Positions 1-3,000 of a DNA stretch of 26,099 nt are shown here, in pieces. The first letter of the stretch is position 1; each line of letters begins with the position of its first letter. A program made the position numbers. Origin of the DNA: a virus (taxonomy: Duplodnaviria > Heunggongvirae > Uroviricota > Caudoviricetes). Location: IMG/VR virus record IMGVR_UViG_2526164602_000011, positions 1 to 26,099 of that record; one strand, given 5' to 3'.

Positions 1-3000
1 AAAAGAAGCCGGATTACTGGCATCAACAGGGAGTACAGGCGACTCGTATGACAACGCGATGGCTGAGAGCATCAATGGTCTTTACAAAGCGGAGGTAATA
101 CACCGTAAGAGCTGGAAAAACCGTGCAGAAGTGGAACTGGCCACACTAACGTGGGTGGACTGGTATAACAATCGACGATTGCTGGGAAGGCTGGGCCATA
201 CTCCTCCGGCAGAAGCAGAAAAAGCTTATTATGCTTCCATCGGAAACGATGATCTGGCAGCCTGAGTTCACAGATAAAACACTCTCCAGGAAACCCGGGG
301 CGGTTCACTGCCTGATGGTGGCCTTTATTTTTGGCATAAACAACAGAATAAACACAGCACTGTGTATTCATTCCAACGAGTGAATACACGGAGCAATGTC
401 GCTCGTAACTAAACAGGAGCCGACTTGTTCTGATTATTGGAAATCTTCTTTGCCCTCCAATGTGAGGGCGATTTTTTATCTGTGAGGATATGAACAGATG
501 TCAAACATCAAAAAATACATCATTGATTACGACTGGAAAGCATCAATAGAAATTGAAATCGACCATGACGTAATGACAGAGGAAAAACTTCACCAGATTA
601 ATAATTTCTGGTCAGACTCTGAATACCGACTCAATAAACACGGCTCTTTATTAAATGCTGTATTAATCATGCTGGCGCAACATGCTCTGCTTATAGCAAT
701 TTCAAGCGACTTAAATGCATATGGTGTTGTGTGTGAGTTCGACTGGAATGATGGAAATGGTCAGGAAGGATGGCCTCCAATGGATGGTAGCGAAGGAATA
801 AGAATTACCGATATCGATACATCAGGAATATTTGATTCAGATGATATGACTATCAAAGCCGCCTGAGCGCGGCGTTACCGCATACCAATAACGCTTCACT
901 CGAGGCGTTTTTCGTTATGTATAAATAAGGAGCACACCATGCAATATGCCATTGCAGGGTGGCCTGTTGCTGGCTGCCCTTCCGAATCTTTACTTGAACG
1001 AATCACCCGTAAATTACGTGACGGATGGAAACGCCTTATCGACATACTTAATCAGCCAGGAGTCCCAAAGAGTGGATCAAACACTTATGGCTATCCAGAC
1101 TAAATTCACTATCGCCACTTTTATTGGCGATGAAAAGATGTTTCGTGAGGCCGTCGACGCTTATAAAAAATGGATATTAATACTGAAACTGAGATCAAGC
1201 AAAAGCATTCACTAACCCCCTTTCCTGTTTTCCTAATCAGCCCGGCATTTCGCGGGCGATATTTCCACAGCTATTTCAGGAGTTCAGCCATGAACGCTTA
1301 TTACATTCAGGATCGTCTTGAGGCTCAGAGCTGGACGCGTCACTACCAGCAGATCGCCCGTGAAGAGAAAGAGGCAGAACTGGCAGACGACATGGGAAAA
1401 GGTCTGCCCCAGCACCTGTTTGAATCACTCTGCATCAATCATTTGCAACGCCACGGGGCCAGCAAAAAGCCATTACCCGTGCGTTTGATGACGATGTTGA
1501 GTTTCAGGAGCGCATGGCAGAACACATCCGGTACATGGTTGAAACCATTGCTCACCACCAGGTTGATATTGATTCAGAGGTATAAAACGGATGAGTACAG
1601 CACTCGCAACGCTGGCAGGGAAGCTGGCTGAACGTGTCGGCATGGATTCTGTCGACCCACAGGAACTGATCACCACTCTTCGCCAGACGGCATTTAAAGG
1701 TGATGCCAGCGATGCGCAGTTCATCGCATTGTTGATCGTCGCCAACCAGTACGGCCTTAATCCGTGGACGAAAGAAATTTACGCCTTCCCTGATAAGCAG
1801 AACGGCATCGTTCCGGTGGTGGGCGTTGATGGCTGGTCCCGCATCATCAATGAAAACCAGCAGTTTGATGGCATGGACTTTGAGCAGGACAATGAATCCT
1901 GTACATGCCGGATTTACCGCAAGGACCGCAATCATCCGATCTGCGTTACCGAGTGGATGGATGAATGCCGCCGCGAACCATTCAAAACCCGCGAAGGCAG
2001 AGAAATCACGGGGCCGTGGCAGTCGCATCCCAAACGGATGTTACGGCATAAAGCCATGATTCAGTGTGCCCGTCTGGCCTTCGGATTTGCTGGTATCTAT
2101 GACAAGGATGAAGCCGAGCGCATTGTCGAAAATACCGCATACACTGCAGAACGTCAGCCGGAACGCGACATCACTCCGGTTAACGATGAAACCATGCAGG
2201 AGATTAACACTCTGCTGATTGCCCTGGATAAAACATGGGATGACGACTTATTGCCGCTCTGTTCCCAGATATTTCGCCGCGACATTCGCGCATCGTCAGA
2301 ACTGACACAGGCCGAAGCAGTGAAAGCTCTTGGATTCCTGAAACAGAAAGCCTCTGAACAGAAGGTGGCTGCATGACACCGGACATTATCCTGCAGCGTA
2401 CCGGGATCGACGTGAGAGCTGTCGAACAGGGGGATGATGCGTGGCACAAATTACGGCTCGGCGTCATCACCGCTTCAGAAGTTCACAATGTGATAGCAAA
2501 ACCCCGCTCCGGAAAGAAATGGCCTGACATGAAAATGTCCTACTTCCACACCCTGCTTGCCGAGGTTTGCACCGGTGTGACTCCGGAAGTTAACGCTAAG
2601 GCGCTGGCCTGGGGAAAACAGTACGAGAACGACGCCAGAGTCCTGTTTGAGTTTACTTCCGGCGTGAATGTTACTGAATCCCCGATCATCTATCGCGACG
2701 AAAGTATGCGCACCGCCTGCTCTCCCGATGGTTTATGCAGTGACGGCAATGGCCTTGAGCTGAAATGCCCGTTTACCTCCCGGGATTTCATGAAGTTCCG
2801 GCTCGGTGGTTTCGAGGCCATAAAATCGGCTTACATGGCCCAGGTGCAGTACAGCATGTGGGTGACACGAAAAGATGCCTGGTACTTTGCCAACTATGAC
2901 CCGCGCATGAAGCGTGAAGGCCTGCATTATGTCGTGATTGAGCGGAATGAAAAGTACATGGCGAGTTTTGACGAGATGGTGCCGGAGTTCATCGAAAAAA

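Follow-up and report, generated by a model that had tools for sequence, protein, structure and literature searches.

The 26,099-bp stretch of DNA analysed here (IMG/VR virus record IMGVR_UViG_2526164602_000011, positions 1 to 26,099; the whole of it is called the window below) is the entire contig AKLW01000053.1 of assembly GCA_000267165.1 from Escherichia coli O157:H7 TW11039, and it opens inside a copy of the insertion sequence (IS) IS629 that stands upstream of ea10 in the left early arm of a lambdoid prophage, a Shiga toxin (Stx) 2c-type element with VT2-Sakai-like immunity and left arm. Taking all evidence together we are confident that this is a simple insertion of IS629 between N on one side and the small RNA (sRNA) gene PreS and ea10 on the other, that the region cI-pL-nutL-N upstream of it is intact, and that the arm has probably kept its pL/N-dependent expression. 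The apparent truncation of the early operon at the start of the window is an assembly artefact, as the contig ended inside a multicopy repeat. The TW11039 assembly consists of 71 contigs and was made with Celera from hybrid Illumina/454 data (PMC3593324), and the window opens 307 nt before the right end of the IS because the assembly broke the contig inside this multicopy element. A mobile-element end at position 1 can be a mere draft contig break and is hence no evidence of operon truncation.

Window 1-307 represents the right end of IS629 and is 100% identical to an IS copy in strain 7409; the same element, which belongs to the IS3 family, carries the label IS1203 in RefSeq (PGAP 'IS1203 family'). 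The element terminus ...GGGGCGGTTCA (also read as ...AAACCCGGGGCGGTTCA and ...GGCGGTTCA) is reached at base 307, and the terminal 13-mer TGAACCGCCCCGG was located at 295-307 on the minus strand. No second IS629 end was found in the window, where the 13-mer matched only one other place, with 2 mismatches and no better than expected by chance. The transposase genes are oriented as pL transcription, and the OrfB fragment, whose reading frame is open at the contig start, spans positions 297-369 of the 369 positions of the NCBIfam model transpos_IS3. From base 308 on the window is phage DNA, this base being the start of every match to IS-free phages and genomes, and 190 nt are left to ea10. The first-pass annotation of this DNA had assigned positions 1-497 to an IS629-like element. 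The transposase 3' end and the terminal repeat confirm such an element end at the start of the window, and the proposed extent holds for 1-307, while 308-497 turned out to be phage DNA, namely the end of the open reading frame (ORF) H0090 and the spacer behind it. The statement that the IS adjoins the region where lambda carries ral was correct, with lambda homology beginning at the last ral codons.

The other side of the element is present on a second contig from TW11039, AKLW01000047.1 (same assembly), the coordinates of which are given here as L007. The last 1582 nt of this contig (L007 11251-12832) overlap window 1-1582 with 14 differences, and its gene order is P, O, cII and cro (minus), cI (plus), pL, nutL, N, an H0090 fusion, a complete IS629, ea10, cIII and gam up to the contig end. 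Both junctions can be read directly as ...CAAGGCTG[TGAACCGCC...1310 bp...GCGGTTCA]CTGCCTGATGG, and the trinucleotide CTG is found on either side of the element. In strain F8798 the corresponding prophage has no IS, and to it the left flank is 99.92% identical over 9 kb and the right flank 99.3%. When placed on the F8798 sequence, the flanks have exactly 3 bases in common, which represent the target duplication, and the whole locus minus the IS and 3 bp gives a 99.9% match. Upstream of the IS we could locate a pL-like TTGACC-17-TACTAT at L007 9452-9480 and the N gene (Pfam N_peptide, E = 3.4e-32). Judged by alignment, pL, the operators, nutL (boxA/boxB) and N appear in the order annotated in VT2-Sakai, the sequence of the contig being 99.66% identical. 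N, nutL, pL and cI are now 1313 bp (1310 + 3) further away from ea10, and coordinate arithmetic gives a distance of ~2.26 kb between pL and the start of ea10 compared to ~0.95 kb without the IS.

The insertion has also left its mark in a protein sequence. H0090, an 83-aa ORF product named from VT2-Sakai and without an assigned function, sits in the lambda ral position, and comparison of the locus with annotated relatives revealed no ral in this prophage. The last codon of H0090 was exchanged for ten IS-encoded residues, so that the 91-aa product ends in ...NKAVNRPGNPGD instead of ...NKAA. The sequence of this fusion protein, ...IYNKAVNRPGNPGD, was predicted from the CTG duplication before the look-up and was found exactly once in the protein collection, as EIO64948.1 ('phage protein') from TW11039, which is encoded on AKLW01000047.1. 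None of the three variants predicted for a 4-bp duplication occurred in the same collection. No Pfam family matched the fusion protein, and its ORF terminates 25 nt upstream of the orfA start codon.

The full element on AKLW01000047 comprises 1310 bp, from TGAACCGCC to GGCGGTTCA, and includes both terminal repeats, which agree in 9 of the first 10 and in about 22 of the first 27 positions. It is 99.8-99.9% identical over its full length to depositor-annotated IS629 copies (e.g. AJ304858.2 and AP012531.1), and it is by these depositor annotations that its identity as IS629 was judged. The product of orfA has 108 aa with an HTH_Tnp_1 domain and that of orfB has 296 aa with HTH_21 and rve domains (all Pfam). 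At the orfA/orfB overlap Rfam detects the ALIL frameshift pseudoknot with 121.5 bits (gathering score 50), and RefSeq annotates a 'programmed frameshift' in identical IS copies. With its ~1.3 kb, imperfect 5'-TG...CA-3' repeats, overlapping ORFs with -1 frameshifting and a short duplication the element shows the features of the IS3 family; target duplications of 3-4 bp are typical of IS629. From these features the TW11039 copy is apparently complete and functional.

Everything upstream of ea10 had been expected in the first-pass annotation to be either displaced by at least an IS length or deleted. The first part is what we found, as the region is displaced by 1310 + 3 bp, and deletion is contradicted by the presence of cI, pL, nutL, N and H0090 on AKLW01000047. 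What had been described as truncation of the early operon by the IS is only the end of a contig, since the complete IS and an intact upstream region follow on the second one. The other IS end and a 3-bp target duplication had been named as features to look for further upstream, and both are there; of the genes looked for beyond them N and cI are present and ral is replaced by H0090. An intact N-pL region, which was named beforehand as the observation that would speak against a truncated operon, is located at the far end of the IS.

From the window alone, which holds nothing upstream of the IS, one might assume an IS629-mediated deletion or rearrangement that removed ral, N, pL and the immunity region and orphaned the red/ea arm from its promoter, and Stx2a_WGPS6, in which IS629 is located in ea10 and ~720 bp (the rest of ea10 to gam) are missing, would be an example of a loss next to this element. 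As AKLW01000047 carries cI, pL, nutL, N and H0090 to the left of the same IS, together with the matching CTG and perfect colinearity to the IS-free F8798, this explanation is already refuted unless AKLW01000047 is a mis-join, and we give it practically no weight. It is also very improbable that the two contigs represent different loci, or that AKLW01000047 was mis-joined across the repeat so that the true left flank of the IS in the window lies elsewhere, for example after IS629 recombination. Such a situation could be suspected from the differences in the overlap, from the many IS629 copies in O157, from the several ea10-gam paralogues (median 3 matching places in each genome) and from the fact that the window already contains a joint made by recombination between two prophages. 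A chance mis-join would, however, not be expected to show the same CTG at both junctions and to restore an unbroken, F8798-colinear target, and the right IS/phage junction is identical in both contigs. Of the differences themselves, 10 are seen only in AKLW01000047 and 4 only in the window. Six of the 14 change the length by a single base, five of these within homopolymers of 4 or more bases, and no alternative allele in F8798 or AR-0427 agrees with any of them. Such a pattern fits 454-type errors at low-quality Celera contig ends. Because of the matching CTG repeats and the F8798 colinearity a mis-join across the IS appears very unlikely.

Two observations concern the quality of the overlapping part of the window. 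The window-private substitutions at 1070, 1072 and 1265 may also be errors. Furthermore, gam (window 1290-1631) appears frameshifted, with A5 at ~1463 compared to A6 in AKLW01000047, F8798 and AR-0427. A real gam frameshift was considered and rejected as a likely explanation in view of A6 in all three comparators and of the 454 reads in the assembly; the shift is probably a sequencing error in a homopolymer at the contig end.

Regarding the consequences for the pL arm, the features downstream of ea10 are, in order, the cIII thermoregulator RNA and the genes cIII, kil, gam, bet and exo. Neither ea10 nor cIII has an NCBIfam match, and the thermoregulator was identified as Rfam Lambda_thermo at 926-984 (+) with 88.5 bits, overlapping the cIII start at 939. 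In a repressed lysogen pL would be off and the insertion should be without effect on the phage genes. Upon induction, pL transcripts would acquire N at nutL, and because nutL is located upstream of the IS they would be N-modified before entering it. Transcription would continue across the additional 1.3 kb and the terminator tL2a (see below) and reach ea10, cIII, kil, gam, bet and exo, and the arm would stay pL/N-dependent, with expression at most somewhat reduced. N-modified polymerase overrides Rho-dependent and intrinsic terminators over many kb and relieves IS polarity. Release of IS-caused polarity by lambda N was reportedly described by Adhya, Gottesman and de Crombrugghe in 1974. That system resembles TW11039 in that transcripts from pL run into an IS after passing nutL, and read-through is expected; the IS insertions there were reportedly in gal, whereas the analogy would here have to extend to IS629 and a 933W-type N. 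Read-through into gal increased ~13-fold on induction (PMC2147009).

Further support comes from the Stx2a phage PA45, which carries IS629 in the same spacer and for which particle DNA obtained after ciprofloxacin induction was sufficient for a closed genome. The genes downstream of the spacer are dispensable for lytic growth in lambda. A loss of pL/N-dependent expression of the red/ea genes, as suggested in the first-pass annotation, therefore seems unlikely by analogy, with nutL upstream of the IS and PA45 still being packaged. The further suggestion that the arm depends on read-out from the IS is unsupported. A simple consensus scan, which could miss a weak promoter, gave no promoter-like site on the plus strand of window 1-1300, and tL2a is located before ea10, so that IS read-out is unlikely as the source of ea10 and red expression. 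An outward-directed promoter of the IS itself was also considered, and no consensus-like site came up in the scan.

It could be argued that the insertion is simple but strongly polar, with transcription from pL ending in the IS or shortly behind it and PreS, ea10, cIII, kil, gam, bet and exo silent or dependent on weak IS read-out. IS elements are classically polar, this one adds 1.3 kb to the transcript, and weak terminator-like hairpins exist at L007 11015-11030 and at window 308-321. On the other hand, the polymerase would already be N-modified on entry with nutL upstream of the IS, no plus-strand promoter-like site was detected in window 1-1300 that could provide the read-out, tL2a (450-477) would halt unmodified read-out before ea10, and the number of terminator-like matches in L007 (7 compared to 4.0 +/- 2.1 in shuffles) is not clearly above expectation. 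We therefore regard strong polarity as unlikely and prefer continued pL/N-dependent expression across the IS. Three points nevertheless weigh against this interpretation as a whole. With 14 differences in 1582 nt the two contigs strictly could be two near-identical copies; read-through of IS629 is deduced from lambda and not from the 933W-type N/nutL of TW11039; and PA45 shows only that a phage with an IS in the spacer can still grow lytically and be packaged, not that the genes downstream are expressed.

The spacer between the IS and ea10 is of interest by itself. Window 308-497, consisting of the H0090 end and the spacer, shows ~98% identity to the spacer between ral and ea10 of lambda and contains a homologue of the lambda sRNA LPR1, renamed PreS, with the terminator tL2a; the first-pass annotation had recognised neither of them within the 1-497 interval it described. 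Lambda PreS is encoded between ral and ea10 with tL2a as its 3' end, has ~88 nt and is processed to ~68 nt, is bound by Hfq and expressed only during the lytic cycle, raises dnaN translation and regulates both dnaN and alaS, and its deletion leads to 2- to 4-fold lower titres from spontaneous induction (bioRxiv 10.1101/2024.10.31.621285). The primer table in this preprint supplied both ends of LPR1, which we mapped to the window. Homologues are defined there by at least 92% identity to lambda LPR1 and at most 3 gaps, and the copy in the window lies well within these limits and has an intact seed, as the seed region 426-442 is identical to lambda and the sole mismatch is located in the terminator loop. 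PreS is thus intact in TW11039 and begins 83 nt downstream of the IS end, the IS now being positioned between PreS and pL/nutL. Its predicted fold (-30 kcal/mol, z = -3.6, 0 of 200 shuffles as good) is typical of an Hfq-type sRNA, and the region 308-478 overall has a fold z of -5.0. The terminator tL2a is the same in lambda except for one loop base, its position between the ral-equivalent ORF and ea10 agrees with lambda, and it is the first terminator that transcription leaving the IS would meet. TW11039 and lambda hence share seed, terminator hairpin, U-tract and position of PreS, but only TW11039 has IS629 83 nt upstream. A scan of the DNA from the IS end to base 391 revealed no promoter for PreS itself, and the preprint gives no account of PreS production. 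A hairpin with a ~14-bp stem (ACTGTGTATTCATTCC...GAGTGAATACACGG) at window 360-390 (+) lies directly 5' of the PreS start and is conserved in lambda; it might mark a processing site for the PreS 5' end.

As the IS is co-oriented with pL, ends 83 nt upstream of PreS and has no strong terminator of its own, transposase transcripts that leave the IS without antitermination should end at tL2a and would have PreS, with its Hfq-binding 3' module, at their 3' end. It could also be possible that such read-out is processed to a cI-independent PreS in the lysogen, or that induction drives the transposase genes; even taken jointly we consider these two ideas a long shot. If the first were true, the replication-promoting PreS would be uncoupled from cI control, and if the second were true, sense transcription from pL with N through orfA-orfB might couple transposase synthesis to the SOS response and prophage induction. 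The positions of all features discussed here and those of related IS629 insertions are listed in Table 1.

Table 1. Features at the IS629 insertion site in the window and IS629 insertions of other strains and phages in the same interval
Feature	Position	Strand or orientation	Remarks
IS629 right end, last 307 nt	1..307	+	3' end of orfB and right terminal inverted repeat (~281-307), ...GGTTCA terminus
OrfB C-terminal 87 codons plus stop codon (263-265)	1..265	+	Pfam rve_3 and rve_2; ORF open at contig start
Target-site duplication CTG, right copy	308..310		left copy at L007 10245-10247; both junctions read
H0090, last 8 nt including original stop codon 313-315	308..315	+	alignment with VT2-Sakai and F8798
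PreS (LPR1) homologue	391..478	+	87/88 identical to lambda 34011-33924, no gaps
Intrinsic terminator tL2a	450..477	+	8-bp GC-rich hairpin (450-471) plus T6; 3' end of PreS; from scan and fold
ea10 (DUF2528)	498..866	+	Pfam E = 6.7e-47; first protein-coding gene downstream of the IS
IS629 in AR-0427	3 bp upstream of the TW11039 site	same as pL	AGG duplication; copy only 97.4% identical
IS629 in strains 7409, F1273 and TX 376-2	139 bp upstream of the TW11039 site	same as pL (checked in 7409)	
IS629 in PA45	96 bp downstream of the TW11039 site	opposite	inside PreS
IS629 in Stx2a_WGPS6	inside ea10	same as pL	adjacent deletion of ~720 bp

To place the insertion into a wider context, we looked for the exact TW11039 IS/phage junction at the CTG site. 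None of the 5,426 complete E. coli genomes and 50,697 phage records has it, and it is also missing from IMG/VR, the GTDB representatives and the JGI metagenomes. The one related junction that these searches yielded was that of AR-0427, 3 bp away. In AR-0427 and in the group around strain 7409, cI-pL-N is intact immediately upstream of the IS, as in TW11039, and strain 144 has an IS629 end nearby at a different spacing. At least four other IS629 sites were observed in the N-ea10 interval of other EHEC prophages, in both orientations (L002 4998-6307, L003 4998-6307, L011 1801-3110 and L014 2726-4035). The N-ea10 interval is struck by IS629 repeatedly and independently, and it may be a local hot spot. 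The elements in the phages PA4/PA45, Stx2a_F422 and CP-1639 are the same as in TW11039 (1310 bp, 99.8-99.9% identical), and only the site differs. In PA45 (L011, KP682389.1) the left end of IS629 lies within PreS at ~3104-3118, 7 nt ahead of the part that makes up the processed 68-nt RNA. Full-length PreS is interrupted in this phage because the left end is inside it, and the phage is still inducible and packaged.

Within Stx2a phage types, diversity has been reported to come mainly from the copy number and position of IS629 (PMC4587872). For phiPA2 and phiPA8, Gong et al. (2023) reported that the position of IS629 alters Stx-phage behaviour, a methyltransferase gene being disrupted (PMC10810198). 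There the IS629 position is the main difference between near-identical prophages, whereas the TW11039 insertion replaces no more than the final codon of a small ORF. The TW11039 insertion is an ordinary strain-specific IS629 polymorphism of an already known kind. With IS629 insertions near PreS, and especially with that of PA45, natural variants are available for studying PreS production and the role of PreS in Stx-phage induction.

The remainder of the window shows that it joins two prophages. Positions 308-6462 belong to a VT2-Sakai/Stx2c-type left arm and positions 6424-26099 to the right end of a 933W-type Stx2a phage (99.97% identical, strain OK1), with the crossover in a shared 39-bp stretch (6424-6462) at the 3' end of a DUF551 gene, two DUF551-type genes being involved. 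H0074, H0073, xis, int and att are missing at this joint. The same joint occurs in one of the 5,426 complete genomes, F8798, which has a Stx2a-Stx2c composite prophage between sbcB and dacD. The first-pass annotation had suggested a defective prophage; if the arm is excision-defective, the prophage fusion and not the IS is the cause. Behind the joint a hok/sok-type toxin-antitoxin system was found at window 6982-7307 (+), with Rfam sok at 6982-7156 (113.5 bits) and a Hok/Gef coding sequence at ~7152-7307 placed by correspondence to F8798, followed by a YgiW/BOF-family gene at 7426-7770. A 2806-aa ORF at window 8321-16741 (-) contains LPD38, LPD5, LPD1 and MuF_C domains and is typical of 933W-type short-tailed Stx phages, its homologue in F8798 being annotated as slightly shorter.

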